This document shows positions 3,656 to 19,122 of a DNA stretch of 64,000 nucleotides, piece by piece. Made by a program: the position numbers and the translations under genes. Source of the stretch: Acidimicrobiia bacterium. GTDB taxonomy: Bacteria; Actinomycetota; Acidimicrobiia; Spongiisociales; ZC4RG35. The notes under the pieces were generated by a model. The model searched no databases and was not told the origin of the DNA. It saw nothing but the letters and a program-made list of their open reading frames with translations. The stretch covers positions 514,928 through 578,927 of the forward strand of contig OZ244856.1 of assembly GCA_965220995.1 (NCBI GenBank). Direction: 5' to 3'. Each line of letters opens with the position of its first letter. The first letter of the stretch is position 1.

Positions 3656-4237
3656 GTGAACAACTACTTCCATTCCGTACCGCCAACCCTTCCCACCGAA
3701 CGACTGCGGCTGCGCCGGTTCCGCTTCAGAGACGCCCGGCCCCTGGCGGAGGCCGTGGGGCATTCGCTTCCCGAATTGAGCCGGTGGTTGCCCTGGGCGC
3801 AGGGTTTGTACGGCCTCCCCGAAGCCCGGATCTTTATCAAGTCATCCGCCCGTTCCTGGAGACGAGGAAGGGCCTTTGATTTTTCGGTGAGGCTGAAGAC
3901 AGGCACCCCTGAAATCGTGGGAGGCCTGGGGATTTGGCATACCTCTCACACCGAAAAGAGCGGAGAAATCGGATACTGGATCAGAAGCGATCTGACCGGA
4001 ATAGGCCTGGCCACCGAGGCCGCCGGAGCGGTGGTAGCCCTGGGGTTTGAGAACATGGGTCTTCACAGAATCCTGATGCGCATCGCCGTGGGCAACCATC
4101 CGAGCCGACGGGTAGCCGAGAAACTAGGGTTTACCTACGAAGGCGTAGCCCGGGAGGAAATCTTGGTGCGAGGACAATGGATGGACCATGAGGTATATTC
4201 GCTCCTGGACCGGGAATGGCATCTGAGACCGCAATGA
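3656..4237 (+). CDS. GNAT family N-acetyltransferase (RimJ/RimL-like)
   Basis: 193 aa. TERLRLRRF N-terminus and an acetyl-CoA binding core (GYWIRSDLTGIGLATEA...RVAEKLGF). Confidence 0.8.
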   Translation: MNNYFHSVPPTLPTERLRLRRFRFRDARPLAEAVGHSLPELSRWLPWAQGLYGLPEARIFIKSSARSWRRGRAFDFSVRLKTGTPEIVGGLGIWHTSHTEKSGEIGYWIRSDLTGIGLATEAAGAVVALGFENMGLHRILMRIAVGNHPSRRVAEKLGFTYEGVAREEILVRGQWMDHEVYSLLDREWHLRPQ

Positions 4238-5334
4238 ACGTTGGGCTTCCCCCCGGCTCGGTGGCGGTGGTGCTCGGGACCCGCCCGGAGGTCATCAAAC
4301 TGGCGCACATCATCCGTTTGCTGGGTCCGGCGGCCCGGGTGATCCACACCGGACAGCATTACGACACCAATCTCTCTGAGGCATTTTTTCGGGCATTCGA
4401 CCTGGCCCCGCCCAACCGTTTCCTGGAGGTGGGGGGAGAACCGAGAGGCATCCAGATCGGTGAGGCCACCTCCCGATTGACCCGATTGTTCGCAGACACC
4501 CCTCCTGGCGCAGTGGTCGTTCAAGGTGACACCAACGCGGTGCTGGCCGGGTCATTGGCCGCCAACGCCACCGAAATCCCCCTGGTGCATGTCGAAGCAG
4601 GACTGCGAAGCTACGACCGCGCCATGCCCGAGGAACACAATCGGGTGGTATGCGATCATCTTTCGGATTTGTGCCTGGCGCCCACCGAGACATCCGCCGC
4701 CAACCTGGCCAGGGAAGGAATCGTAGGCAACCGGGTGGTCATCACCGGCAACCCGGTGGTGGAGGCGCTTCGGTCGCTTCTTCCGCCTGCCGACCGAAGG
4801 GCTGATCTGATGAGTCACCACGGCTTGACGGCCGGTGGTTTCATTCTCTCTACCTTTCATCGACCCGAGAACGTCGACCATCCCCGAACCTGGGAAACCA
4901 TCCTCTCCGATCTGGCCCGACTGCCCCTGCCGGTGGTGCTGCCCTTGCATCCCCGCAGCCGACAGCGGGCGGCGGCGTTCGGCCTTGATTCCCTGCTTGA
5001 TCGGCTGCGGGTGGTGGATCCCCTCCCCTATCCCGATTTTCTGGCTCTCCTGGCGGAATGCGCCCTGGCGGTTTCCGATTCAGGAGGCGTGCAGGAGGAG
5101 GTGTCGGTGATCAAGCGTCCGGTGGTGGTGGTCCGCAACTCCACCGAACGCCCCGAGGTACTGGGGACCTTTGCCACCCTCCATCGGCCGGGCGACGGTG
5201 TGGTCGAAGCCATCCTGGAGATCGTGGAATCTCTGGATGAGGTCCATCATCGACTCTCTCGGACTCCCACGCCCTACGGTGACGGATCAGCCTCCCGGCG
5301 GTCGGTCGAGCTCATCGGGCAACTGGTTTCATAA
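4216..5334 (+). CDS. wecB: UDP-N-acetylglucosamine 2-epimerase (non-hydrolysing)
   Basis: VVLGTRPEVIKLAHII, HVEAGLRSYD and NTVLAGS motifs. The true start may be the internal Met at 4234, which avoids overlap with the GNAT gene. Confidence 0.85.
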   Translation: MASETAMNVGLPPGSVAVVLGTRPEVIKLAHIIRLLGPAARVIHTGQHYDTNLSEAFFRAFDLAPPNRFLEVGGEPRGIQIGEATSRLTRLFADTPPGAVVVQGDTNAVLAGSLAANATEIPLVHVEAGLRSYDRAMPEEHNRVVCDHLSDLCLAPTETSAANLAREGIVGNRVVITGNPVVEALRSLLPPADRRADLMSHHGLTAGGFILSTFHRPENVDHPRTWETILSDLARLPLPVVLPLHPRSRQRAAAFGLDSLLDRLRVVDPLPYPDFLALLAECALAVSDSGGVQEEVSVIKRPVVVVRNSTERPEVLGTFATLHRPGDGVVEAILEIVESLDEVHHRLSRTPTPYGDGSASRRSVELIGQLVS

Positions 5335-5504: not shown

Positions 5505-5918
5505 ATGAACGCACAGGACTTCAGAAAGGGTGTTGTCCCCGGCGTCCTGTCCGGCTATATCTTCCTTGCCTATGCGGGCGGGGGAATGCAGGACATGATC
5601 GGCGGGATGATCGACTCCAACGATTTCGTCGGGTTCATCCTGCACATCGTGTTCAGTGCCGTTATCGGAGGCCTCTACACGGCCTTGTTCACCCGCTACG
5701 TGAACATAGCTCACCCCCTGACAAACGTCGGGATCGGTGGCCTCATCTACGGGATCATCTGGTGGGTCGTGGGCGGCAACCTGATCATGCCGCTCATCGC
5801 CGGCGGTGATGTGTTCCAGTTCGAGATCGGCGCCAGCTTCTATGGCCACATAATCTTCGGCCACACCCTCGCCGCATATATGATCTTGCGCAACATCGTG
5901 ATGCCGGATAGCGACTAG
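5505..5918 (+). CDS. Small integral membrane protein (137 aa, Gly-rich TM helices), unknown function
   Basis: GGGAG RBS 7 nt upstream of the ATG. 3-4 predicted TM helices. Lower GC than its surroundings. Followed by a terminator. Confidence 0.6.
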   Translation: MNAQDFRKGVVPGVLSGYIFLAYAGGGMQDMIGGMIDSNDFVGFILHIVFSAVIGGLYTALFTRYVNIAHPLTNVGIGGLIYGIIWWVVGGNLIMPLIAGGDVFQFEIGASFYGHIIFGHTLAAYMILRNIVMPDSD

Positions 5919-6833: not shown

Positions 6834-7089
6834 ACTGCCATGCTGGCCTGGTTACTGGATGTCTGAAGACCCTGCAGGGGAAGGTGGATAAGACGTAGAA
6901 AACAGACCGGCATCAGTATTCAGATGGGTCGAACTCTGAGATCACCTGGCGTTTGCCAAAGTGTCACAGCCCCGTTCTATTGTGCCATAGGCATAGTTCA
7001 AAACGATCTATGGGTCCCAAAAGGCCCAGGCTATCTGTCCTCCGGTCACACGGGCGGGGGTCGAAGCCGAAGAAAGGGGAGCAAACCAA

Positions 7090-8016
7090 GTGACCGAACA
7101 TTTCGACCAAACAAACGCATCCATCTTGCATCTGGAGCGGGCGGCGGTCGGTCGGCCGATCACTCGCCTCGGAGTTTCCTTTTTCCCCGTTTACCTGCCG
7201 GAGAACCACCTTCCGGAAATCGCCACCGGGCGGGACTCGCACCTGACCATCGAAGAGTTGGATGACTCCACAGTTCCGTTGCTCAGTGCGCAGAATCCCT
7301 CCGACCTCCCCGTGCTGATTCCCGAGGGTGAACAACTGGTCGGGGGACTGCAGGACAGGGTTCTCAACATCAGTGTTCTGGTGGCCGCCTCGGTGAGTGT
7401 GAAAATACCCGTCTCCTGTATCGAGATGGGACGATGGGGCAACCGACGGGGTTTCGAAAGGGGTCAGGCATATGCGCCCAGACGGACCCGCAGGGCCAAG
7501 AACAGATCGGTTGCCCGGTCGGTTCGCGCCAGCGGCGCTCCGCGGAGCGACCAGGCCGCGGTTTGGCACTCGGTGGACGAGGAACTGGCACGGGTAGACG
7601 TGGCTTCCCCGACCAGCGCGATGCGCGACGCCGAGCAGTTCCTCCATGCCGATCATCGCCGCGCCGGGACGATCAATCATCTGGCGGGAATCGGGGCGCT
7701 GCCCGGCCAGTGCGGGATTGTGGTAACTCATGGGAAGCGGGTGGTGGCGATGGAGATATTCGGCAACCACCAACTGCTGGTCCCCCATTGGGACGGCCTG
7801 ATCCGCTCCTACCTGATGGAGAAGCCGTCATCGGGCGGGTATCCCTCCGCCACCAGCGCCCTGTGGGCGCTCGGCCGTTTCAGCCAGGCCCCGGCGGTGG
7901 GGAAATCAGGAGTCGGCCTCGGTGTGGAATTGCATGTCGAGACCCATCGCCTGGTGGGTCAAGCCTTGACCCTGAATGGTTCCCTGGTCCACGCATCGGC
8001 CTTCATGATCACGTAG
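7090..8016 (+). CDS. Hypothetical protein (308 aa), unknown family
   Basis: GTG start with an AAGGGGAG RBS. Clear third-position GC bias. Contains HADHRRAGTINHLAGIGALPGQCGIVVTHGKRVVAMEIFGNHQLLVPHWDGL. I cannot place it in a family. Confidence 0.6.
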   Translation: MTEHFDQTNASILHLERAAVGRPITRLGVSFFPVYLPENHLPEIATGRDSHLTIEELDDSTVPLLSAQNPSDLPVLIPEGEQLVGGLQDRVLNISVLVAASVSVKIPVSCIEMGRWGNRRGFERGQAYAPRRTRRAKNRSVARSVRASGAPRSDQAAVWHSVDEELARVDVASPTSAMRDAEQFLHADHRRAGTINHLAGIGALPGQCGIVVTHGKRVVAMEIFGNHQLLVPHWDGLIRSYLMEKPSSGGYPSATSALWALGRFSQAPAVGKSGVGLGVELHVETHRLVGQALTLNGSLVHASAFMIT

Positions 8017-8110
8017 GGCGGTCTGACCGGATAATGCGGATCCCCTCCCGGGGGTCCGCACCCGGTCTGAACTGAACTGTTGGAGGAGGTCTGCGGAAAC
8101 CTGCAAGTGG

Positions 8111-10234
8111 ATGGCGGCTCATAGGTGTAGCCCGGGAGGGGCGCCCCCGCTTTGGGTACACTGGCTCTACCTCCCGAAAAGCCGTGACCGACTGGTAAGA
8201 GACGCGCCTTTGGATCCTGCAAGCAACCTCACAGAGCATCCGCTTACCCTGGCGGAGGAACTCGTTCTGATGCTCCTCAACGAAGAGAACGGGTACTTTT
8301 ATCAGGTCCCCGGTTGGGATTTGAATTGCGCGGTCATCGGCGCCGTCCTGGCGGAACTATCCCTCCGGTCCCGCATCGACACGGATATGGAGTCCCTGTT
8401 TCTGCTCAACCCGGACGACACGGGCAAAGGCGCCCTGGACATGATTCTGAAGGAAATCGCCGGCGCCGACGTTCAGCGGAACGCTCAATACTGGATCGAA
8501 CGGCTGTCTCCCCAGGCCGAAGCCATCATCGACATGACCTTGGATCACCTGGTCGACCTGAGGATCCTGGAACATCACGAAGGCGATTTCTGGACGTTGC
8601 ATCGGAACATGGACCACCGGGAACTGTTCGGCGACACTGCGGAAGATTCCGACGTTCTTTTCGTGAAGACGCGAATCCGTCAGGCCATCTTCCACAACGA
8701 GATTCCCGACCCAAGAGATGTCATCATCATCTCACTCATCAACACCTGCGATGTCTTTCGCTTCATATTCCAGCTTGATGACGAGGCGGAGAAGCGCATT
8801 GAGTTCATCTGCAACATGGATCTGCTGGGTCGGTCCATCGCGGCGGCGGTTTCCCAGAACCTTGCCGGACCTTTGCTTCGACGCTCCGCCCTCACCAAGA
8901 AGATTCCGGTGGTTCCCCTCCGCAAGTTGCTGTTCGATCCGCACATCCGCAATGGCCACGTTCCGGCTATGTTTGCGAATCTCGCCCAGGAATACGGCCC
9001 GGTCTTTGAACTGCGCCCCCCGTTTGCCGACCCGATGCTCTTTCTGGCCGGTCCCGAGACAAATCGGTGGGTGAACCGAAACGGTCGAATGCACCTGAGA
9101 GCCAGGGACTATTTCGCCGACTTCGAAGAGGTCTATGGCGCTAACGGGGTGCTGCCCGCCCTGGACGGGACGGATCACTTCCGACTTCGCAAGGCCTTGG
9201 CCCCGGCCTATTCACGGAGGAGACTGGCCGGTCGCCTGGATGACCTGTTCCGTCAGGCGCGCCAACACATGGCGGGCTGGACGGTTGGAAACTCCTACTC
9301 CGCCACCCGAATGTGTCGGCTGATGGTCAACGCCCAAATCTCGCCGCTCTTTGTCAGCGTGGAGTCTCAGGACCTCATTGACGATTTGATGGTCTACAAG
9401 GAACGGGCGCTCAACACCCACATAGTGAGAGTCCTCCCCAAATACATGCTGAGTACCCCCGGCATGAGGCGCCGGGAAAAGGCCATCGGAACGCTGTTGG
9501 AGCGAGTCCAGAATGTCCATACCTCTGCTCAGCGGGCCGACGCCCCACGGGATCTGGCCGATGACATTCTGAGCCTCCACGCCAGCGATCCACAGTTCTT
9601 TCCCGAGTCCAATCTGCGATTCGCCCTGTCGGCGGCCCTGATAGCCAGCGTGTACCTGGGGGACGCCTTTAGTTTCGCCCTGTACGCCATGGTTTCGCAG
9701 CCGGAACTGGAAACCAGGATCCAGAGGGAGGCCGATGACCTGTTCGGCGGCGGGGATCCCTCCGAGGAGGGCTTCCGCCCCTCGAACCTGGATGTCACTC
9801 ACCGTTTCCTGATGGAATGTCTGCGCATCTATCCCATCGTTCCGATGTCCATTCGGAATGTCATGAACTCATGCATAGTGGAAGGCTACGAGTTGCCGGT
9901 GGGTGCTCGGCTCCACATTGCCCAAACCGCCACCCATTTCATGGAGGACATCTTTCCCCACCCCTTCAGATTCGACATCGACCGCTATCTGCCTCCCCGC
10001 CTTGAGCACCAGGGTCCGGGGTACGCACCGTATGGGCTGGGCACCCACAAGTGTCTGGGCAACCGGTGGATGGAGCTGCAACTGGCGGTGAATGTGCTGA
10101 TGGTGGCCCACTACTTCACGCTGAGGGTTACCCCCGACGACTACCAACTTCGGTTCAGTCCTCTGCCTTCCATGAAACCCAGCAAGAAGCTGCAGTTCAA
10201 GATCGTGGAGCAAAGGCACAAGTTCCCCGCCTGA
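8111..10234 (+). CDS. GPP34/GOLPH3-like N-terminal domain fused to a cytochrome P450
   Basis: N-terminus LTLAEELVLMLLNEENGYFY matches the GPP34-family signature. The C-terminal ~440 aa carry P450 motifs: ExxR (ECLRIYP) and heme-thiolate loop PYGLGTHKCLGNRW. The start is uncertain; the GGAGGAGG RBS at 8081 is 22 nt from the ATG at 8111, and the start may lie further in. Confidence 0.8.
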   Translation: MAAHRCSPGGAPPLWVHWLYLPKSRDRLVRDAPLDPASNLTEHPLTLAEELVLMLLNEENGYFYQVPGWDLNCAVIGAVLAELSLRSRIDTDMESLFLLNPDDTGKGALDMILKEIAGADVQRNAQYWIERLSPQAEAIIDMTLDHLVDLRILEHHEGDFWTLHRNMDHRELFGDTAEDSDVLFVKTRIRQAIFHNEIPDPRDVIIISLINTCDVFRFIFQLDDEAEKRIEFICNMDLLGRSIAAAVSQNLAGPLLRRSALTKKIPVVPLRKLLFDPHIRNGHVPAMFANLAQEYGPVFELRPPFADPMLFLAGPETNRWVNRNGRMHLRARDYFADFEEVYGANGVLPALDGTDHFRLRKALAPAYSRRRLAGRLDDLFRQARQHMAGWTVGNSYSATRMCRLMVNAQISPLFVSVESQDLIDDLMVYKERALNTHIVRVLPKYMLSTPGMRRREKAIGTLLERVQNVHTSAQRADAPRDLADDILSLHASDPQFFPESNLRFALSAALIASVYLGDAFSFALYAMVSQPELETRIQREADDLFGGGDPSEEGFRPSNLDVTHRFLMECLRIYPIVPMSIRNVMNSCIVEGYELPVGARLHIAQTATHFMEDIFPHPFRFDIDRYLPPRLEHQGPGYAPYGLGTHKCLGNRWMELQLAVNVLMVAHYFTLRVTPDDYQLRFSPLPSMKPSKKLQFKIVEQRHKFPA

Positions 10235-10322: not shown

Positions 10323-12794
10323 CTATTCGTAACGTTGGTGGGTGGCTTCGATCAACTCGTCCAATTGGTCGATTTCGTCCTCCCAGCGCAACATCCGAGA
10401 ACGCAGTCGCAGGTTCTGGTAGGCCCCCCAAACCGTCATGGCGGGCGGCACCAGCAGAACGGAAACGATCAACGAATAGGCGATCGTGATGGCGGCGGTG
10501 ATAGCGAACTGCTGGGAGGCGGCCAGAGGAGAGAAAACCAGAATCCCGAGTCCGAACGCGGTGGTCATGGCAGAACCCAACAAGGCCGAACCCGTGGTGG
10601 AAAGCGTCCTGATGGCAGCCTGCTCGGGATCGCGTCCCAGGGAGTACTCCTCTCGGTAACGGTGGATCACATGAATGGTGTAGTCCACCCCGATCCCGAT
10701 CGAAAGGGCGGTGATGATGGAGGTGATAATCGTGTAGGGGATGTCCAACAGGGCCATGGTGCCCAACACCGAAATGAGCACCAGCACGATCGGAAACACG
10801 GCCACAAATCCCAGGGCGGGCTGACGCACCGTTATCCAAAAGAACAGGGCCAAGACGGTGAAAGCCACAGCGATGGTGGTGCTGATCGCCTCGGTTTGCT
10901 GCTCGGTGATGGCGTCGGTGACCGTGAACGAAATGATGCTGGCCGACGTTGCCGTGAGTGCATCGTCGTCACCGGGCCAAAGCGCCTCAAGCTCCTCCTG
11001 GGTCCTCTTCGCCTCAGAAGTGGCACCGGCATAGGCCGGGAATTGGAGCAACATGGCATCGAGGCCGCCCGGGTCGTTGGCCAACAAGCGGTTAAAGCTG
11101 GGATCAAGAGTCTCGATCCGGATCAGCACCTCTTCCATGATCCCGGCGTCCAGTCCCATGCCGGCCGAGGCGTCCCGGAGCATGACCATGATCTCTTCGT
11201 CGTACTTGTCGCCCGGCTGTCCGCTGTCATGGGCCCAGTCAGCCACCGTCAAGTGGTAGGAGGCCAGAATGGGACCCGCCGCGGCGGCCGGGCGGCGGCG
11301 CTCGTCCTCGAAAGCGGTGGTGAGTTCTCCCAGATTCAGAAACGTGCGGGCGTCGGTGGCTTCGGCCTTCACCAGCACACTGTATATCTCGGTGGTGCCG
11401 CCCACCGCCGCATCGAGAGCGTCCATGTCCTCCAACAAGGACCCTCCCCGGGGCAGGATGTCCCGGATGCTGAATTCCGATTCAAGATCCGTGGCGGCGA
11501 ATCCCAGGGCAACCGTCACCGCCACCACTCCCACGATATAGGGAGTAGGCCGGCGGGTAACCCCCCTCCCCAGCATTTCCGCCACCCTCCCGATGGCCGG
11601 CAGCGAGTTGGAGATGGGGCGGGGAGCCGCCAACTTGTTCCGGGCCGCCCTCCTGCGGTCGATGATGGTGCGACCGGCCGGTATCAAAGTCAGCATCACC
11701 ACCAGGCTCATCCCCACCCCGATCCCGGCCACCACGCCGAAGTCGTTGACTATTTCGATGGGTGAGAACAGGTTCACCAACAGGCTCACGATGGTGGTGA
11801 CGCCGGCCAGTGACAGTGGCATGGCAACATGGCGCAGTCCGGTCCGGACTGCGCCGAGCACCTCTTGGCCGGCCAGGCGCTGTTCGCGGTAGTGAGAGAT
11901 GATCTGGATCGAATAGTCCACGGTGAGACCGATCAAAATGATCGGCACCATGGTGGTGAGGGAGTTGGGAGGGCCGATCAGGTCAAGGGCGTTGGGCCCC
12001 AGCCATCCTTCCGCTCCGACGATCCATATGATCGACAGCAAAAGTCCCCCCAGAGTGAGCAGCAGATCGGAGGCGCTGCGCATAAAGAGCAGTATCAGGG
12101 CGGCAATCAGCAGAAACGCTCCTCCCACCAATGGCCCCATTCCTTCCTGGGTGGCTCTCTGGTACTCCTCTTCGATCACCACCGGCGAGACGGTGCTCAC
12201 CCGAAGGGGTCCCTCATCTCCCTCCGCGAGTTGGCGGACCCTGTGCTCGGCCACCACGATTCGCTCGTCGTCGGTGTCTTGCAGATTGATGGTGGCGATG
12301 GCGACCGGCGTCCCGTCCCGGTCGATGCCGGTCAGCGCCTCAATGGCCTCCGAAATCCCCGGGACACTGCGGACCGAATCGATTTCCGCCCGCGTGACCG
12401 ACTCGAGATTCTCCACCCCCAGGACGGCCCTGACCAGCAGCGAAGGCGCCAAGACCGCGTCGGAGGACACCAGCAAATCGGTCACATCGGGGTCTCTGAC
12501 GATCTCGCCGACCAGACGATCCATCTGCGAGAGCCCGGCTGGGGTAAGTACCTCCCCCCGGAAAATCAGCGTGGCAATGTTGGCGGCGGCGCCCGAGTCT
12601 CCGAAGAGTTCATCAATGTCATCCAGAGCCCGGGCGACTGCGCTGTCCCGGGGAAGGGTCTCCTGGGTCTCCGGCGGCGGCGCCCGGTGTACGGCGCCGG
12701 CCCCCAGCGCCACGGTGACAATCAAAAGGATGAGAAGGGTAACCCACGGATAGCCCGTCACCATCGAACGAATCCAAGCGAGCGTCCTGTTCAC
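10323..12794 (-). CDS. MMPL/RND-superfamily membrane transporter (lipid exporter type)
   Basis: 823 aa. Duplicated 6-TM plus periplasmic-domain architecture. Typical MMPL blocks GIGVDYSIQIISHYRE and GIGVDYTIHVIHRYRE. Confidence 0.85.
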   Translation of the reverse strand: MNRTLAWIRSMVTGYPWVTLLILLIVTVALGAGAVHRAPPPETQETLPRDSAVARALDDIDELFGDSGAAANIATLIFRGEVLTPAGLSQMDRLVGEIVRDPDVTDLLVSSDAVLAPSLLVRAVLGVENLESVTRAEIDSVRSVPGISEAIEALTGIDRDGTPVAIATINLQDTDDERIVVAEHRVRQLAEGDEGPLRVSTVSPVVIEEEYQRATQEGMGPLVGGAFLLIAALILLFMRSASDLLLTLGGLLLSIIWIVGAEGWLGPNALDLIGPPNSLTTMVPIILIGLTVDYSIQIISHYREQRLAGQEVLGAVRTGLRHVAMPLSLAGVTTIVSLLVNLFSPIEIVNDFGVVAGIGVGMSLVVMLTLIPAGRTIIDRRRAARNKLAAPRPISNSLPAIGRVAEMLGRGVTRRPTPYIVGVVAVTVALGFAATDLESEFSIRDILPRGGSLLEDMDALDAAVGGTTEIYSVLVKAEATDARTFLNLGELTTAFEDERRRPAAAAGPILASYHLTVADWAHDSGQPGDKYDEEIMVMLRDASAGMGLDAGIMEEVLIRIETLDPSFNRLLANDPGGLDAMLLQFPAYAGATSEAKRTQEELEALWPGDDDALTATSASIISFTVTDAITEQQTEAISTTIAVAFTVLALFFWITVRQPALGFVAVFPIVLVLISVLGTMALLDIPYTIITSIITALSIGIGVDYTIHVIHRYREEYSLGRDPEQAAIRTLSTTGSALLGSAMTTAFGLGILVFSPLAASQQFAITAAITIAYSLIVSVLLVPPAMTVWGAYQNLRLRSRMLRWEDEIDQLDELIEATHQRYE

Positions 12795-12929
12795 GGCCTA
12801 CCCTGTTGCTCCCGAAGTCCGAGAACCACTATCCCGGTCACCTGCCTGTTCAGTACCGCTGCTCACCACCACCACCTCTGATAAGCCTAATCTTCGGGCA
12901 GGCGCCCAGGCCGGTTCCTGTCGGCCTGC

Positions 12930-13592
12930 TTACGTCACCAACCGATTGAGAAACACCACCCCGGCTATGGTCACCACCCCCAGATAGGAAAGGCCGGTGG
13001 CAGCCATCACCCCCGAATAGCCGGTTTCTCCCAGGGAGAACCACGTGCCCGCCACCAGGGCGGCGCTCACCAGCGCCAGGATGCCCAGGGTCCATCCCAG
13101 CGGGCCACCCTGGTAAGGGACTGCTCCGTTGACCAAGCCCGCTCCCAGGCTCAGCAGCAAACCCACCCCGGCCCAAAGATCCAAACGACGCAACGCCCAG
13201 CGGGGAAGGGTGGGGTCCACCAGAAACCAGTGACCCAAAAGCATGGTGGCGGTGATACCACCCAGCGCCACGGCGCCGGCCACCGCCGTCATCCAACCGC
13301 CGGAAGTCACCGCCGGGATCATCGCCAGCAAGGCGCCGACGCTCACCAACGGGGAGAATTCTCGCCGTCCCGATCTCCACACCGCCGCCAACATCGCCGC
13401 CAGACCGGCCGCCGCCCACCACCCCCGCCAGGCCGGGTAGACCATCAGCAAAGCGGCGGTGGCGGCGCCCAGCATCTGGTATCCCCGCTTGGCCACTCTC
13501 CAGCGGACCGCCAAGGGCAAGGTCAAAGCGAGCCCCCCTGCCCAGGCCGCCATAAAGGCCGCCGGGCCAAAGGTTGCACCGGTGGGTATCAC
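12930..13592 (-). CDS. Hypothetical polytopic membrane protein
   Basis: 220-aa Ala/Gly/Leu-rich ORF with ~6 TM helices, co-directional with the MMPL gene. No family recognised. Confidence 0.5.
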   Translation of the reverse strand: MIPTGATFGPAAFMAAWAGGLALTLPLAVRWRVAKRGYQMLGAATAALLMVYPAWRGWWAAAGLAAMLAAVWRSGRREFSPLVSVGALLAMIPAVTSGGWMTAVAGAVALGGITATMLLGHWFLVDPTLPRWALRRLDLWAGVGLLLSLGAGLVNGAVPYQGGPLGWTLGILALVSAALVAGTWFSLGETGYSGVMAATGLSYLGVVTIAGVVFLNRLVT

Positions 13593-13601
13593 CCTCGGCG
13601 A

Positions 13602-15524
13602 TTACAGGTGGGCCAGGACCCGTTCGGCGACCGACCGGGGAGTGAAACCGAACTTGTCGGCCAATACCGTGTGCGGCGCCGAGGCCCCGAACCGGTCGAT
13701 CCCGATGGCCAGGCCGTCGGACCCCACCAGCCGTTCCCAGCCGAACGTGGATCCGGCCTCCACCGAGACCCTGGGCAGGCCGTCTCCCAAGACCTGCCGT
13801 CGGTAATCGGGGCCCTGTTCCTCAAACGCCTCCCAACACGGGAGGCTGACCACCCGAGCCGAAATGCCCTGCTCTTCCAACAGGTCGGAAGCGCCCAAAG
13901 CCACCGACACCTCCGACCCGGTGGCCACCATCACCACATCCTCGCCGGGGCGCAGGACATATCCGCCCTTGCAAACTTGGCCGTCGGTCTGCGATGGATC
14001 CAACACCGGGATGCCCTGTCGGCTGAGAACCAGCAGGGTGGGACCGGCGGTCCGGTTGAGGGCCAACTCCCAGGCCTGCACCGCTTCGGTGATATCGGCC
14101 GGGCGAACCACCCACAAACCGGGCATGGCCCGCAGGCTTGCCAAGTGTTCCACCGGTTGATGAGTGGGGCCGTCCTCACCGAGCAGGACGGAGTCGTGGG
14201 TCATCACCCAGATACAGGGCAGTTCCATCAGGGCGGAAAGCCGAATGGAAGGGCGCATGTAGTCGGTGAAAACAAAGAAAGTGGACCCGTAGGGTCGAAC
14301 GCCGCCGTGCAGCGCCATGCCGTTGACGATGCCGCCCATGCCGTGTTCTCTCACCCCGAACTGAATGTTGCGACCCAGTCGGTTGGCGCGGGAAAACCCC
14401 GAGTCTCCGGGCAGCGCGGTCTTGGTGGACTCAACCAGGTCGGCCCCACCGCCGATCAGGCCCGGGACTTTCTCGCCGATTTGCCCGAACAACCGGGCGG
14501 ACACCACCCGGGTGGCCACCGCCGTCCCCGACTGCAAATCCGGCGCCTCCAGCCCGACCGGAGTGTGGGTGTGGAGGGTGTGCCATTCTCCGCTTCGCTC
14601 CCGGCTTTCCCACTCACGGCGGGCGGATCTCCCCCGTTCCATGCCCTCGGACATGAAGCGGTAAACCTCGGGTGGCACCCAGAAATCCTCGTCCGGCGGA
14701 AGGCCGATGTTCTCTTTGGCCAACCTCACCTCTTCGACCCCCAGCGGCGCCCCATGGGCCCCGGGAGTGTCCGCCTTGTTGGGGGAGCCATGGCCGATGT
14801 GGGTGCGGCAGATAACCAGAGAAGGGCGCTCGGGGTTGTCCAGAGCCTGCCGGGTGGCCTCCGCGATCGCCTCCCGGTCATGGCCGTCCACCGCCTCGGT
14901 GTGCCAACCCAGCGCCCGGAAACGCGCTCCCACGTCTTCGGAGAACGTGATGTCGGTGCCGCCGTCGATGGAGATGCGATTGTCGTCGTAGAAATAGATC
15001 AGCCGTCCCAGGCCGAGATGCCCGGCCAAAGAGGCCGCCTCGGCCGCCACCCCTTCCATCAGATCACCGTCGGAAACGAAACCATAAGTGTGGTGATCCA
15101 CCTGGTCGGCCCCCAGGCGGGCGCGCAGATGTTCCTCGGCCAGCGCCATTCCCACCCCGTTGGCAAACCCCTGCCCCAACGGGCCGGTGGTGGTTTCGAT
15201 ACCCAACTCCGGATCCCGCTCGGGATGCCCGGCGGTGGGATAGCCCCATTGGCGGAAGTTCTTCAAGTCGTCCATGGAGAGCGGAAAACCCGACAGGTGC
15301 AACATGGCGTAGAGCAGCATCGAGCCGTGTCCGTTGGACAGTACGAAGCGGTCCCGGTCCGGCCAGGTGGGAGCGTCGGGATCCACCTTGATAAAGCGAG
15401 TCCAGAGCGTCACCGCGATGTCGGCCATTCCCATCGGCATTCCCGGATGCCCGGAGTTGGCCCGCTGCACCGCGTCCATGGCCAGGCCCTTGACCACCGC
15501 TACGGCAAGCTGTTCATCTCTCAT
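13602..15524 (-). CDS. tkt: Transketolase
   Basis: 640 aa. ThDP motifs GHPGMPMGMADIA and SNGHGSMLLYAMLHLSG. Pyrimidine-binding and C-terminal domains present. Confidence 0.9.
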   Translation of the reverse strand: MRDEQLAVAVVKGLAMDAVQRANSGHPGMPMGMADIAVTLWTRFIKVDPDAPTWPDRDRFVLSNGHGSMLLYAMLHLSGFPLSMDDLKNFRQWGYPTAGHPERDPELGIETTTGPLGQGFANGVGMALAEEHLRARLGADQVDHHTYGFVSDGDLMEGVAAEAASLAGHLGLGRLIYFYDDNRISIDGGTDITFSEDVGARFRALGWHTEAVDGHDREAIAEATRQALDNPERPSLVICRTHIGHGSPNKADTPGAHGAPLGVEEVRLAKENIGLPPDEDFWVPPEVYRFMSEGMERGRSARREWESRERSGEWHTLHTHTPVGLEAPDLQSGTAVATRVVSARLFGQIGEKVPGLIGGGADLVESTKTALPGDSGFSRANRLGRNIQFGVREHGMGGIVNGMALHGGVRPYGSTFFVFTDYMRPSIRLSALMELPCIWVMTHDSVLLGEDGPTHQPVEHLASLRAMPGLWVVRPADITEAVQAWELALNRTAGPTLLVLSRQGIPVLDPSQTDGQVCKGGYVLRPGEDVVMVATGSEVSVALGASDLLEEQGISARVVSLPCWEAFEEQGPDYRRQVLGDGLPRVSVEAGSTFGWERLVGSDGLAIGIDRFGASAPHTVLADKFGFTPRSVAERVLAHL

Positions 15525-18500
15525 CAGGAAACATACGGTACCAATTCGCCTCGGTGACCCGTCCGTCCACCGGGGTCACCCCGTTGCGACGCTTCCAATA
15601 CTTGGTATTCCGATCCGTATCGTCGTCGAATTCCCCGGTTACCGCGATATTCGCCCCCGGCACGTTGGCATTCAAAGCTTCCTGCCATCTTCTAACCAGC
15701 GGACCGGAGTCGTCCTTTTGCAACGGAAAGGAAGTGGCGATAACCGACCCGTCATCTCCGCCGGGAGGACTCCCTTCGGGGAACATACGGTCCCATGCCG
15801 CTTGAGTGACTCGGCCGCTGGCGGCGATCCCCTCATGCCGCTGCCAAGACTTGGTATACCTGACCGTGTCATCGCCGAACACTCCGTCAACCTCGATGTT
15901 CGCCCCCTGCACGTTGGCATTCAAAGCGATCTGCCACACCTGCACCCGCGGTCCCTCATCCCCTTCCTCCAACAACACCGATGACCAGCGGGCAACGTTG
16001 GTGGCGCCGGAAGAGCCGCCCGAGAACATCTCCCGCCAATCGTCGGCGTCCACTATCCCACTGACCGCCAGCCCGTTGTCACGCTGCCAGTTGCGGGTGG
16101 CCCGCTCGGTCTGAGGGCCGAAACTTCCATCGGCCGTCACCCCCACAGCCCGTTGCCAGGTCACGACATCGGCCCCCCGCGACCCCCTCCTCAAGGGTTG
16201 GCCGGGATAGGCGGGCGTCGGTGCGGCAACGTTTTCCTCCCGGCTGCCGACATCGGTGGAACTCGGTTGGCGCGTCCCGGCGCCGGCAAACATCCGGCCC
16301 CACGATTCCGCGTCGACCGTCCCGTCAGCCGTCAGACCCTGTTGGTACTGCCACGCCTTGGTGGCCACCAAAGTGGCGGGCCCAAAGTCGCCGTCCGGCG
16401 CGATCCCCAGCGCGCGCTGCCACACGATCACGTCCATACCTTGAGAACCCACCCGGAGCGGGGTTCCCGGATAGGAGGGGACGTTTCCATCCGATCCGTT
16501 CCCGTCTCCGCCCGAATCCGAACTCCCATTCTTGTCAGGCGGAGTAGCGGGCTGCTCCACACCTGCACCGGGAAACATGGTCTGCCAACTCTCCAAACCC
16601 ACTACCCCGTCGGGGTTCAGCCCATTTCGTTCCTGCCATTGCCGGGTGGCCCGGGCGGTGGCGGCCCCGAAGTATCCGTCCGCCCTCACCCCCAGCGCGG
16701 CCTGCCAGGTTCTCACCCACTTGCCCTGGCTTCCCACCCTCAGCAAAAAGCCCGGGTAGCTGGGAACGCCCGAATCGGTGGTCGGGCTCTGGGGTTGGGT
16801 TCCCGCCTCCGGTTCCGGGTCGGGCGCCGGTTCCGGGTCGGGATCGGATTCGGGTTCCGGCGGGCTCGCGAACATCTTGTTCCAGGACTGCTCCCCCACG
16901 ATCCCGTCGGGGTTCAAGCCGTTCTCCTCCTGCCACAGGCGGGTGGCGGCGGCGGTGGCCGGGCCGAAGTCCCCATCGGCGGTCACTCCCAAGGCCTCCT
17001 GCCACAAACGAACCGGTTCCCCCCTGCTTCCCTGCCGCAACGGCGCCCCCGGGTAAGGTTGCTCGGCGATCACCACCCGGGGAGAAGTGGCGGCCGATGG
17101 TGGGCCGTCGCCTACCTGGTTGGTGGCCATCACCGTAAAGCTGTAGTCCACTCCCCTTCGCAGACCCGTGACAACCGCTTCGGTTTGAGATCCCTCCACC
17201 ACCACCGGATCGACATGGGCGGGAGTAACGGTCACCGTGTACCTCCCCGGATCGAACCGGGCGGGAACCGGATCCCAACGCACCGTGGCCGCCGTTCCGC
17301 CGGTCACAGTCACGCCGGTCGGAGCGGGCGGCGGCGACCAACCGGGCGCCAAGTAGTCGATCACGAAATACCTGGATCGCAACCGCAGGGACGATTTGAT
17401 AGTGGAGGCGGAGACCCGTTCGGTGACCCGGGTTCCCCCCCGGATGCCGACGATCTTCACGTGTTCGGCGCTGCCCCACGGGTAGGGAACCGTGCTCACC
17501 GACACCACCTCGGAGAACCGGCCCTCCAGGTTGAAGATCTCAAGCAGGTCTGCCAGAGAAACGGTCTTCGACCAATAGGCGCCCGGATTGACCGCCGGAT
17601 CAATCGACCAGGGGTCCCGCACCGACACCAGGTAGGGTCGTCCCGCCGTGCCCCACAACGTCGAAGAGTCTTCCGTGGCGCCTCCGCTGGAGGCGGAATA
17701 GAAGGCCTGCACCACCGTTTCCGATTCCTGGGGATGGGTGATCACCATGCCGGCCGTGGGTCGGGCGCCCACCGTCGCCCACCGACCATCCGCCTGGATT
17801 TCTCGATTCCATCCGGCATACACCTGATCACGCGAATCACTCAGAACATGACACCAGCACGACGAACGACGGGCACTGCTCAGAGACGGTCCCGAACCGC
17901 GGCGCAGCATGCCGTAGATCGCATAGGAACGGGCGGCGATGGCCTGGGCCCGGAGGGCCGCATCGGGCCATCCGGCGGGAACCTCGGCGATTCCCGCCAC
18001 GTAGTCCTCGATATCCAATTGCATAGAAAAATGGATGCGGTTCCCACTGGGACGCAACCGGACATTTCCGTGGGCGAACTCGGTCATGTTGGACCCATAT
18101 CTGAGGCCCTCCAAGCCCACCCGGTTGGCGGGCGTCAGACCCTGGATGCTCAGGTGGCACTCGGTGGCGGTTCCCACCAGGTTGGTTGAACAGGACCCTC
18201 CTCCGGCGGCGGTCACCGCAAGCCGCTCCCCGGCGTCCAGGTAGTAGGCCCCGGCACATTCGGGCAAGCCGCTGTCAGAAAGCAACGCCTCCCAGGTGCT
18301 GCTTCCCACCGCCCCATCCGCCTGCAGGCCCTGGTCGGCCTGAAAAGACCTCACCGCGTCCCGCACGGTCCCGTCGAATCCACCGGGAACCGATTGCAGA
18401 TATCCCAGTTCCACCAATCTGGTCAGCACGACATCGGTGAAGGTGTTGTCCCGTTCCAGGGTTTTTCCCTCCACCAGCACGGGATAGGAGTCGTAGTCCC

Positions 18501-19122
18501 CATCAAAGCAGACTCTGACCTGCCCGGCGGTCACCACAAACGTCAGGTCCGAACGGTTCTGTCTGATCCCCACCCAGATTGGCATGGGTTCGGTCACCAC
18601 CCACGAGCCGGGAAGGGCCGAAGCCAGACTCTGCACCGACGTCCCTTGATAGAAGTGTTCCAGGATCTGAACCTGGTTATAGCCCTCGATCGCCATACCC
18701 AGGGCCCCGAACTGGGTCAGCCCCACTCCATGTCCATGGCCGGCCCCATCAATAGTGATCTGCACCCGGTCGGCGTTGACCGCGGCATTCGGGAACATCA
18801 CCCTCCAGGAGGCGGGGCCCACGATCCCGTCACCCACCAGACCATTGGCTACCTGCCACCGGATGGTCGCCGCCCTGGTCTGTTCCCCGAAAGCGCCGTC
18901 TGCGCTGATGCCCAACGCCTCCTGCCACACCCGGACCGCCTCTCCCCGGCTGCCCAACCGCAGCGGTTCTCCCGGATATTCCTGCGCCGCCACCGGGATG
19001 ATGGTGGTGGATACCAGGAGGGCCACTCCCAGTGCCGCCACCAGGCGAGGCAAGCGGCGCCTACGGGTTTTCTTTCTGTGGTTTCTCAAGTTAAAGCCCA
19101 ACAATGCTCGAACAGGCGCCAA
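15514..19122 (-). CDS. Large secreted cell-wall protein: SpoIID/LytB domain, FN3-like domain and 6 or more peptidoglycan-binding (PG_binding_1) repeats
   Basis: Signal peptide. Reiterated LRxGSxGxxVxxWQxALGxxADGxFG modules. SpoIID-like block YVAGIAEVPAGWPDAALRAQAIAARSYA. Confidence 0.75.
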   Translation of the reverse strand: MAPVRALLGFNLRNHRKKTRRRRLPRLVAALGVALLVSTTIIPVAAQEYPGEPLRLGSRGEAVRVWQEALGISADGAFGEQTRAATIRWQVANGLVGDGIVGPASWRVMFPNAAVNADRVQITIDGAGHGHGVGLTQFGALGMAIEGYNQVQILEHFYQGTSVQSLASALPGSWVVTEPMPIWVGIRQNRSDLTFVVTAGQVRVCFDGDYDSYPVLVEGKTLERDNTFTDVVLTRLVELGYLQSVPGGFDGTVRDAVRSFQADQGLQADGAVGSSTWEALLSDSGLPECAGAYYLDAGERLAVTAAGGGSCSTNLVGTATECHLSIQGLTPANRVGLEGLRYGSNMTEFAHGNVRLRPSGNRIHFSMQLDIEDYVAGIAEVPAGWPDAALRAQAIAARSYAIYGMLRRGSGPSLSSARRSSCWCHVLSDSRDQVYAGWNREIQADGRWATVGARPTAGMVITHPQESETVVQAFYSASSGGATEDSSTLWGTAGRPYLVSVRDPWSIDPAVNPGAYWSKTVSLADLLEIFNLEGRFSEVVSVSTVPYPWGSAEHVKIVGIRGGTRVTERVSASTIKSSLRLRSRYFVIDYLAPGWSPPPAPTGVTVTGGTAATVRWDPVPARFDPGRYTVTVTPAHVDPVVVEGSQTEAVVTGLRRGVDYSFTVMATNQVGDGPPSAATSPRVVIAEQPYPGAPLRQGSRGEPVRLWQEALGVTADGDFGPATAAATRLWQEENGLNPDGIVGEQSWNKMFASPPEPESDPDPEPAPDPEPEAGTQPQSPTTDSGVPSYPGFLLRVGSQGKWVRTWQAALGVRADGYFGAATARATRQWQERNGLNPDGVVGLESWQTMFPGAGVEQPATPPDKNGSSDSGGDGNGSDGNVPSYPGTPLRVGSQGMDVIVWQRALGIAPDGDFGPATLVATKAWQYQQGLTADGTVDAESWGRMFAGAGTRQPSSTDVGSREENVAAPTPAYPGQPLRRGSRGADVVTWQRAVGVTADGSFGPQTERATRNWQRDNGLAVSGIVDADDWREMFSGGSSGATNVARWSSVLLEEGDEGPRVQVWQIALNANVQGANIEVDGVFGDDTVRYTKSWQRHEGIAASGRVTQAAWDRMFPEGSPPGGDDGSVIATSFPLQKDDSGPLVRRWQEALNANVPGANIAVTGEFDDDTDRNTKYWKRRNGVTPVDGRVTEANWYRMFPDER

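Follow-up and report, generated by a model that had tools for sequence, protein, structure and literature searches.

A GPP34-cytochrome P450 fusion gene linked to RND-superfamily transporters in an Acidimicrobiia bacterium: a candidate lipid oxidase

What does a bacterium do with a protein that joins a GPP34 domain, known from the eukaryotic phosphatidylinositol 4-phosphate (PI4P)-binding proteins GOLPH3 and Vps74 (PMC2806290), to a cytochrome P450? The question is raised by a 64,000-nucleotide stretch of contig OZ244856.1 from an Acidimicrobiia bacterium (assembly GCA_965220995.1, positions 514,928 to 578,927 of the forward strand), hereafter called the window. In the open reading frame (ORF) listing for the window, one open frame of 707 codons, counted from ATG, occupies positions 8111..10234 of the forward strand. 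The original prediction for this DNA held that the frame unites the two domains and that its product, a transporter encoded downstream and a small protein encoded upstream could form a lipid-modifying and exporting module. We conclude, with a probability of roughly 0.55, that the fusion is a cytoplasmic lipid oxidase, acting probably on a sterol or sterol-like triterpenoid, and that it is coupled to transport by an adjacent pump of the resistance-nodulation-division (RND) superfamily.

The union of the two domains in a single frame was borne out by a Pfam scan of the product, in which both domains scored above their curated cut-offs. GPP34 was supported across the stretch that had been assigned to it (residues 40-250, within the N-terminal ~250 aa): PF05719 (GOLPH3/Vps74-like; E=1.4e-25, 91 bits, cut-off 29.1) covers ORF residues 47-247, at 8249..8851 on the forward strand, to which all coordinates within the fusion gene refer. 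The P450 domain (PF00067; E=3.9e-32, 112 bits, cut-off 22.8) covers ORF residues 282-697 (8954..10201). Between the two Pfam envelopes lies a linker of approximately ORF residues 248-281 (8852..8953), which overlaps a lower-confidence stretch of the AlphaFold2 (AF2) model. No second GPP34 or P450 was found within the 64-kb window. A first AF2 run based on 31 sequences of 70-87% identity was discarded (predicted local distance difference test, pLDDT, 49.7). With the alignment diversified by fusions of 25-39% identity, the model reached a pLDDT of 86.3 and a predicted template modelling score (pTM) of 0.79, the latter value suggesting a defined arrangement of the two domains. The fusion contains neither a signal peptide nor a transmembrane segment, its hydrophobic maxima being buried core helices only, and by these features it is predicted to be a cytoplasmic protein.

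The frame from ATG is as originally described, but the product is probably shorter than the 707 residues then given. Translation probably starts at TTG 8210, yielding a protein of 674 aa (coding sequence 8210..10234, stop included), because homologues of 674-675 aa begin at the equivalent residue, AAGAG lies 8 nt upstream, and the preceding 33 codons do not align with locus L003, a syntenic Acidimicrobiia metagenome-assembled genome (MAG). Homologue starts lie 13 residues ahead of an L-(S/T)-L-x-E-E-L motif, and the codon of the window at that point is this TTG. The in-frame stretch from the ATG, 8111..8209, has no counterpart in homologues and is probably untranslated; the DNA alignment to L003 starts at codon 10 of the TTG gene. 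In the sister contig L001, the gene caller set a shorter start (654 aa). Residues are numbered below from the ATG unless TTG numbering is indicated.

We looked for a stop or frameshift separating the domains and found none in the window, in the sister contig, or in any of the 120 homologue clusters listed. All 120 of these clusters carry both Pfam domains, at ~675 aa. From window position 6955 onward, L001 (European Nucleotide Archive ERZ25072299 contig_6, 385 kb) matches at 98.6% identity, and its frame is likewise unbroken; inside the fusion gene the two differ at eight nucleotides, six of the differences being synonymous. Compared with L003, the ratio of nonsynonymous to synonymous substitution rates (dN/dS) was 0.11 for GPP34, 0.07 for the P450 and 0.10 for the whole gene, against 0.37 for TTG-numbered codons 216-250, which overlap the linker; these values are only approximate because dS is near saturation. 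A scan of GTDB species representatives confirmed at least 558 relatives of the fusion in many phyla. By all of these comparisons the fusion is a real and widespread gene, both domains of which are evidently under purifying selection.

The window protein falls in one tight clade, whose members are at least 58% identical to one another, with 69-76% identity between phyla in the scan of genomes, and it is 70-87% identical to many MAG proteins of the same architecture. The block 8001-10000, which contains most of the gene, has a G+C content of 0.592; no other 2-kb block in the window is as low, and 0.61-0.67 is typical. Low G+C together with 69-76% cross-phylum identity is consistent with horizontal acquisition of the fusion. 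Outside the clade, an exhaustive search of 1.84 billion cluster representatives returned dozens of full-length fusion clusters of 655-690 aa at just 25-39% identity, and also standalone P450s at ~30% identity. Other arrangements of the domains were seen as well: P0136 (872 aa) has two tandem GPP34 domains and a P450, and P0220 (444 aa) has tandem GPP34 domains and no other domain. In contig L085, two GPP34-P450 paralogues (one at L085:1-383) are separated by 7.6 kb, and a gene for a TonB-dependent receptor lies beside one of them.

The architecture had been thought uncharacterised, and with respect to biochemistry this stands. It is not unreported, however, as Ferreira et al. (2025, Microbiome 13:4, PMC11706023) named it GPP34_L, and the fusion itself is therefore not a new finding. 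According to that paper, 656 of 663 long GPP34 proteins are GPP34+P450; all come from sponge-symbiont MAGs, which span 14 phyla out of 20 surveyed, and a figure shows an acidimicrobial one. Measured against that description, the window protein is a GPP34_L member, with an N-terminal GPP34 and a C-terminal PF00067 domain in ~675 aa, and no sequence feature sets it apart; Acidimicrobiia, Dehalococcoidia, Latescibacterota, Nitrospirota and other lineages are common to both data sets. Many of our homologues come from MAGs with the bin prefixes APA and SB066x, which the same paper ties to A. aerophoba and I. ramosa. The flanks considered there are those of GPP34_S only, with a remark on nearby P450 genes, and in the sections consulted we found no analysis of PI4P residues, P450 motifs or the GPP34_L neighbourhood. 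It is in the reading of the protein that we differ from that paper: in our data the PI4P pocket lacks conservation, and the gene is adjoined by RND pumps and by tailoring genes of sterol type.

We therefore turn to the P450 half, for which an ExxR motif in ECLRIYP and a Cys loop in PYGLGTHKCLG had been predicted. Both are present. The ExxR motif is E569-C-L-R572 (9815..9826), in which the Glu and Arg are invariant across 36 diverse fusions. The heme-ligand loop, Y640-G-L-G-T-H-K-C648-L-G (10028..10057), conforms to the F/YxxGxxxCxG pattern with C648 as the predicted ligand, and its G609, G611, H613 and C615 (TTG numbering) are invariant in 36 fusions. An FDIDRY segment is conserved or conservatively varied in the fusions compared. 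Foldseek aligned the modelled P450 with CYP184A1, the Methylococcus capsulatus CYP51-ferredoxin fusion, CYP120A1 and P450 BM3 at TM scores of 0.80-0.84 and 16-21% identity (0.82-0.84 and 19-21% for the first three), and sterol and lipid P450s of this group were also the best matches for this half in a PDB sequence search, at 64-77 bits. In sequence and in the model, the P450 thus keeps its predicted heme-binding set of Cys loop, ExxR and P450 fold.

Assignment to CYP51 was considered and rejected, as the match amounts to ~73 bits and ~20% identity to solved CYP51s, and no CYP51 model is among the NCBIfam matches. With CYP51 (including 6MCW), CYP184A1 (7WZL), CYP120A1 and P450 BM3, the fusion has in common the P450 fold, the ExxR motif and the Cys loop. 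It differs from them in its low identity, in the absence of a CYP51 signature and of the I-helix acid-alcohol pair, and in having a partner domain that is not a redox domain. On present sequence evidence it is a member of an orphan P450 family with lipid- and sterol-acting fold neighbours, among them CYP51 and fatty-acid P450s.

The I-helix was predicted to lack the conserved oxygen-activating Thr, with LGDAFSF in place of the usual motif. Loss of the Thr was upheld, but the register was not, as LGDAFSF lies ~4 residues downstream of the true motif equivalent, A512-S513-V514-Y515-L516-G517 (9644..9661). HMMER placed A512-G517 opposite AGHETT of CYP184A1 (7wzl) and AGHHTS of CYP51, and a MAFFT alignment with 34 relatives placed it opposite AG(L/I)(D/E)T. 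The Thr position corresponds to Leu516 or Tyr515, depending on the placement of a one-residue gap; neither is Thr or Ser, and no acid precedes. The window protein thus does not carry the (A/G)Gx(D/E)T(T/S) oxygen-activation motif, which is typical of the P450 superfamily though not obligatory. In the same MAFFT alignment, distant fusions and standalone relatives have a canonical I-helix (AGIETV, AGIDTA, VGLETS, AGLDTV), P0127 and P0165 are intermediate (AGHYT), and the clade of the window protein and its nearer relatives have A(S/A)(V/I)Y(L/I/V)G, which is nearly invariant. The loss of the acid-alcohol pair is evidently a derived change, later kept nearly invariant, and this pattern argues for altered chemistry rather than decay.

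An I-helix without the Thr occurs naturally in CYP74 allene oxide synthase, CYP8A1 prostacyclin synthase, CYP5A1, the CYP152 peroxygenases and CYP107A1 (EryF), and in these P450s the replacement goes with peroxide-rearranging, peroxide-using or substrate-assisted chemistry. The fusion has in common with them the heme-thiolate core and the replaced oxygen-activation Thr. No specific sequence kinship to any of them was detectable, and the Cys loop of the fusion is canonical, unlike that of CYP74, which bears an insertion.

The gene downstream of the fusion, at 10323..12794 on the reverse strand and hence convergent with it, encodes an MMPL/HAE3-type RND transporter of 823 aa. Its membership of the MMPL family was confirmed by PF03176 (E=1.3e-44, in two stretches), accompanied by sterol-sensing and Patched domains. 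The protein resembles HAE3 and HpnN, at scores below the NCBIfam cut-offs (HpnN 98 against 752; BstA 37 against 1400), and its nearest solved relatives are Patched-1, MmpL3/5 and HpnN, which move sterols, hopanoids and mycolates. The lipid-moving RND proteins HpnN (hopanoids), BstA (sterols, Methylococcus), MmpL3 and Patched/NPC1 are nearest to it and have MMPL and sterol-sensing domains in common with it. Falling far below the HpnN and BstA family cut-offs, the window pump represents a divergent HAE3/MMPL-like branch.

We compared the neighbourhood of the fusion across 81 loci, namely L001 and 80 GTDB species representatives. De novo clustering of neighbouring ORFs produced one junk mega-cluster along with shadow-ORF clusters from the high-GC DNA, and only Pfam-confirmed clusters were used. 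The fusion was paired with an RND-superfamily pump in 70 of the 81 loci. MMPL-type homologues of the window pump, at 60-76% identity, lie downstream and convergent in 48 loci, with a gap of 47-303 nt in 12 of these and one gene between in 34. Among the 33 loci without the MMPL type, an AcrB-type RND pump takes its place in 22, and its gene often ends 50-180 nt upstream of the fusion on the same strand. Pump type follows lineage: MMPL in Acidimicrobiia and Chloroflexota; AcrB-type in Latescibacterota, Gemmatimonadota/Longimicrobiales, Binatia and Opitutales. The AcrB-type genes, which represent a non-orthologous replacement of the pump, are located at ~6700-9950 in L014, L017, L021, L024, L027, L041, L048, L054, L058, L061, L065 and L068, at ~12000-15200 in L034 and L047, and at L085:10012-16140, where OEP and adaptor genes accompany them. 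Beside P0138, a fusion of 35% identity with a canonical I-helix, AcrB, OEP and adaptor genes follow after 2 nt. As the linkage persists though the pump family is swapped, it is strong evidence that fusion and pump are functionally coupled. Of the module originally proposed, the P450-pump pair is therefore supported; the upstream gene at 7090-8016 is excluded from it, as described further below.

Other enzyme genes recur in the same neighbourhoods. A KshA-like Rieske oxygenase (Rieske + KshA_C) is encoded near the fusion in 69 of the 81 loci and an amine-oxidase-like flavoprotein (Amino_oxidase) in 47, while a Methyltransf_11 + Sterol_MT_C gene, homologous to sterol C-24 methyltransferase (SMT), is found in 57 loci and usually abuts the fusion. 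The putative SMT homologue at L007:12066-13163 (reverse strand) matches PF08241 at 62 bits and PF08498 at 55 bits and contains GWGESLHF, DVGCGIGGP and IESTCHAP, which we take to be SMT signature motifs. In L082, two SMT homologues flank the fusion, together with a weak FA_hydroxylase match. The flavoprotein, Rieske, fusion and MMPL pump genes occur together within 10 kb in 32 loci, with their order shuffled. Re-association of the same four or five gene families in many orders across phyla argues for selection for linkage rather than hitch-hiking.

Some of the loci show further variation. In some Dehalococcoidia loci (L046:16816-19292; also L028, L049, L050 and L074), the Rieske gene is separated from the flavoprotein gene by genes for an MFS transporter and a lipid-binding lipoprotein of the LppX/LprAFG type, and these may be additional lipid-handling parts of the cassette. 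In L083 (MPNA01000005), DDE transposase genes at 12245-14091 lie directly downstream of the fusion, and the usual pump, SMT and Rieske genes were not seen in the 2.2 kb of downstream sequence. This arrangement points to mobility or disruption of the cassette at this locus.

Sterol tailoring by sponge symbionts has a precedent: Brown et al. (2023, PMC10070321) showed in vitro that SMTs encoded in metagenomes of sponge symbionts methylate the side chains of sterols, as far as 24-isopropyl. The fusion cassette resembles three published groups of clusters in hosts, in phyla and in having SMT and Rieske genes: the Melophlus symbiont msb cluster (PMC7074536), the 'CSGs' (ERG24-CYP51-LSS) found in Ircinia symbionts (PMC9531527) and the SMT clusters from the study of Brown et al. 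Horizontal transfer with purifying selection has been reported for these sponge-symbiont sterol clusters in the same three papers. Genes for oxidosqualene cyclase, a bona fide CYP51, ERG24 and SdmA/SdmB enable those clusters to make sterols de novo. None of these lies within 10 kb in the fusion cassette, which has instead the GPP34-P450, the KshA-like Rieske oxygenase, the amine-oxidase-like flavoprotein and the RND pump. Identity of the cassette with the 'CSG' of Kelly et al. or the Melophlus msb cluster was accordingly rejected, as those hold oxidosqualene cyclase, ERG24 and CYP51. GPP34 is not mentioned in PMC7074536, PMC9531527 or PMC10070321, and the clusters described there include no P450 beyond bona fide CYP51; PMC10070321 has no mention of a P450. 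We found no report tying GPP34_L to a pump/SMT/Rieske cassette in the searchable literature, which leaves most subscription journals outside reach. Within that literature, the pump and tailoring-gene context, the replacement of PI4P residues and the loss of the I-helix motif in the clade appear to be new.

We next consider the GPP34 domain, in connection with which the original prediction noted the PI4P binding of the eukaryotic family. In GOLPH3, the PI4P pocket is formed by W81, R90, R171 and R174, and the double mutants W81A/R90A and R171A/R174A abolish binding (Wood et al. 2009, PMC2806290). The bacterial domain is a member of the same family as GOLPH3 and Vps74 (3KN1, 2ZIH), with an N-terminal L-T-L-x-E-E-hydrophobic helix, and possibly a projecting beta-hairpin, in common. 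A profile built from 22 fusion GPP34 domains matched the GOLPH3 structures 3kn1/9qpq at E ~2e-13 and Vps74 at ~2e-10; a PDB search with the single window domain gave just a marginal match to the Vps74 N-terminus (E=0.37). AF2 pLDDT across the domain was mostly 76-93, with strands predicted at residues 120-123 and 127-130, a candidate hairpin, and after them a loop of low confidence (135-149). The fusion's domain differs from the eukaryotic proteins in having no Golgi context, in the replacement of the basic pocket residues, in its acidic character and in being joined to an enzyme.

The residue replacements are consistent across the clade. R90 of GOLPH3 corresponds to I76 (I43 in TTG numbering), a position occupied by I, V or A in all sampled fusions except one with Ser. 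R171 corresponds to E137 (E104), which is mostly E, D or N in the sampled fusions and E or D in the clade. R174 corresponds to I140 (I107), where Ile is invariant in the clade and Arg is kept in 11 of the 22 sampled fusions, all of them distant. W81 aligns two residues before an invariant Trp of the fusions. The window domain has a net charge of -19 and an isoelectric point (pI) of 4.60, compared with a pI of 8.34 for GOLPH3 residues 56-275, these being values for whole domains and not for surfaces; 21 of the 22 fusion domains have a pI of 4.3-5.2. With its acidic character and other residues in place of the three basic ones of the pocket, this domain is unlikely to read PI4P in the canonical way, and the binding known from the eukaryotic family does not transfer.

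Our favoured reading would work as follows. The P450 would oxidise a membrane lipid, probably a sterol or sterol-like triterpenoid, and the adjacent RND transporter would move that lipid out of or across the cytoplasmic membrane. A sterol-type substrate is what the cassette suggests. The GPP34 domain may serve as an adaptor tethering the P450 to the membrane, to a membrane protein (perhaps the pump) or to the substrate, with no reading of PI4P. The altered I-helix may bring non-standard oxygen chemistry, either substrate-assisted activation or a peroxide-using or rearranging reaction. In a more specific form, which we put forward tentatively and regard as clearly short of even odds, the GPP34-P450 would carry out oxidative tailoring within a horizontally mobile bacterial cassette for sterol modification and trafficking in sponge symbionts, comprising SMT, KshA-like Rieske, flavoprotein and RND genes. 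The acidic, PI4P-blind GPP34 domain would then dock the P450 to the pump or membrane, and the Thr-less I-helix would support unusual chemistry such as desaturation or peroxide rearrangement of side-chain-alkylated sterols.

Several observations weigh against a sterol oxidase coupled to export. The P450 is only ~20% identical to any solved P450, and its best NCBIfam matches are terpene oxygenases at scores far below cut-off. No redox partner is encoded near the fusion. The Rieske protein was rejected as an SdmA equivalog, with a score of 29 bits where the cut-off is 600. Homologues of the SMT, Rieske and flavoprotein genes are absent from the 64-kb window, and the nearest relatives, L002, L004, L005, L012 and L023, have the order flavoprotein, fusion (both forward), pump, Rieske (both reverse) and lack an SMT within 10 kb; in L003, an SMT homologue is located 3.8 kb upstream of the fusion. 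At the window locus, only the fusion-pump pair is directly conserved. The sterol link is therefore one of the family, and indirect for this locus, as the window is without cassette genes and its nearest relatives are without SMT. The mapping of PI4P residues rests on a 52-bit profile-sequence alignment in which W81 is offset by two residues from the Trp, and an altered pocket is possible. Finally, linkage to an RND pump fits detoxification as well as it fits biosynthetic export.

Detoxification and efflux is the main rival, overlapping with the favoured reading in mechanism, as a lipid is oxidised and then pumped, and differing from it in biological purpose. Under this explanation a toxic lipophile from the host or community, such as a sponge terpenoid, a sterol or another natural product, enters the symbiont membrane, where the P450 oxidises it and the RND pump then removes the product. 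The SMT, Rieske and flavoprotein genes would be linked to the fusion as fellow residents of a mobile island and not as members of one pathway. Pump adjacency in 70 of the 81 loci, which includes classic AcrB/OEP/adaptor tripartite efflux systems, would be expected from such a role, and the window keeps the P450-pump pair only. The shuffled order of the cassette, the transposase beside the gene in L083 and the ~70-76% identity across phyla, which suggests horizontal spread, likewise agree with passage on a mobile island. However, SMT homologues abut the fusion in most loci, with two flanking it in L082, and the very high constraint on the gene suggests one defined substrate and not a broad xenobiotic range. 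We regard detoxification as possible but doubtful.

A role as a secreted effector, proposed by Ferreira et al. (2025, PMC11706023), is unlikely. In that proposal the protein is released into the sponge cell, binds PI4P on the phagosome and blocks phagosome maturation, with the P450 as an accessory. The same paper reports the family only from sponge-symbiont genomes and as absent from free-living relatives, which would suit a host-directed function, as would the PI4P binding of the eukaryotic homologues (PMC2806290) and the apparent retention of the GPP34 fold, seen in the GOLPH3 profile match and the confident AF2 model. Against this, the equivalents of R90, R171 and R174 are I/V/A, E/D and I throughout the clade of the window protein, and it is at these positions that double mutation of GOLPH3 abolishes binding; the domain is strongly acidic where GOLPH3 is basic (pI 4.6 against 8.3, net charge -19). 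The fusion has no signal peptide. It is a 674-aa predicted heme enzyme with intact catalytic-core motifs under strong constraint, and the genes conserved around it encode lipid-tailoring enzymes and RND pumps rather than secretion systems.

It is highly improbable that the N-terminal domain makes the P450 self-sufficient by standing in for a redox partner, as occurs in P450 BM3 or the Methylococcus CYP51-ferredoxin fusion. Natural P450 fusions are mostly to redox partners, an analogy that is drawn by Ferreira et al. (2025, PMC11706023), and no separate ferredoxin or reductase was seen nearby. The N-terminal domain, however, matches GPP34 only, an all-helical fold without a cofactor, and no flavin, Fe-S or heme-binding family was detected in it; the same domain also occurs alone, in tandem (P0220) or fused to other proteins, in part as described in that paper. 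An assembly or annotation artefact, with two genes merged by sequencing error or a decaying pseudogene, has nothing in its favour but the unusual architecture and the shorter start (654 aa) called in L001, and can be dismissed given the same unbroken frame in L001, in 120 of 120 listed homologue clusters and in 558 genome matches, and a dN/dS of ~0.1 in both halves.

The 308-aa protein encoded upstream at 7090-8016 (forward strand), originally described as unknown, proved to be an ARPP-1 domain protein (PF20208, E=1.8e-63). Its gene accompanies the fusion in only two of the 81 loci, L001 and L003, which belong to the window's own lineage. As it is confined to these loci and lies at a strain-variable boundary, we rejected its membership of the module; it may go with the adjoining variable island and not with the P450. 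Upstream of the point corresponding to window position 6955, L001 (L001:1-8688) carries an island of DNA methylase, UvrD helicase, Helicase_C, MZB and PLDc_2 genes that resembles a defence system. On the window side of this boundary lie a putative UDP-GlcNAc-2-epimerase-like ORF (4216-5334, by inspection) and a 137-aa membrane protein (5505-5918).

L003 (OZ219758.1, 'Acidimicrobiia bacterium') shares with the window the order ARPP-1, fusion, RND transporter, 220-aa membrane protein, transketolase and large cell-wall protein, and the neighbouring proteins are 72-87% identical between the two over aligned stretches; by this synteny, too, the window most likely comes from an Acidimicrobiia genome. 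The large cell-wall protein corresponds to a 1202-aa ORF at 15514-19122 on the reverse strand, whose counterpart in L001 has PG_binding, SpoIID and fn3 domains and which is 72% identical in L003; by its domain content the product is a large, predicted cell-wall-associated protein. No Rfam match and no rRNA were found in the window.

The only printed proposal for this family, that of a secreted PI4P effector, conflicts with the sequence, in which the pocket is gone and the domain is acidic. Nearly universal adjacency to RND pumps and frequent adjacency to SMT homologues offer a concrete alternative, in which sponge symbionts of many phyla would share a mobile cassette for tailoring and transporting lipids or sterols, with the P450 as the oxidative step. 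For enzymology, the family presents a new clade of P450s in which the I-helix is both non-canonical and conserved and the fusion partner is not a redox protein. If the proposal is true, sponge bacteria would run a dedicated pathway of sterol remodelling and export that goes beyond side-chain methylation in vitro, and this would bear on the origin of the 24-isopropyl and 26-methyl 'sponge biomarker' sterols. Such a pathway would be relevant to the persistence of symbionts in sterol-rich hosts and to the debate on the bacterial share in 'sponge' sterane biomarkers.

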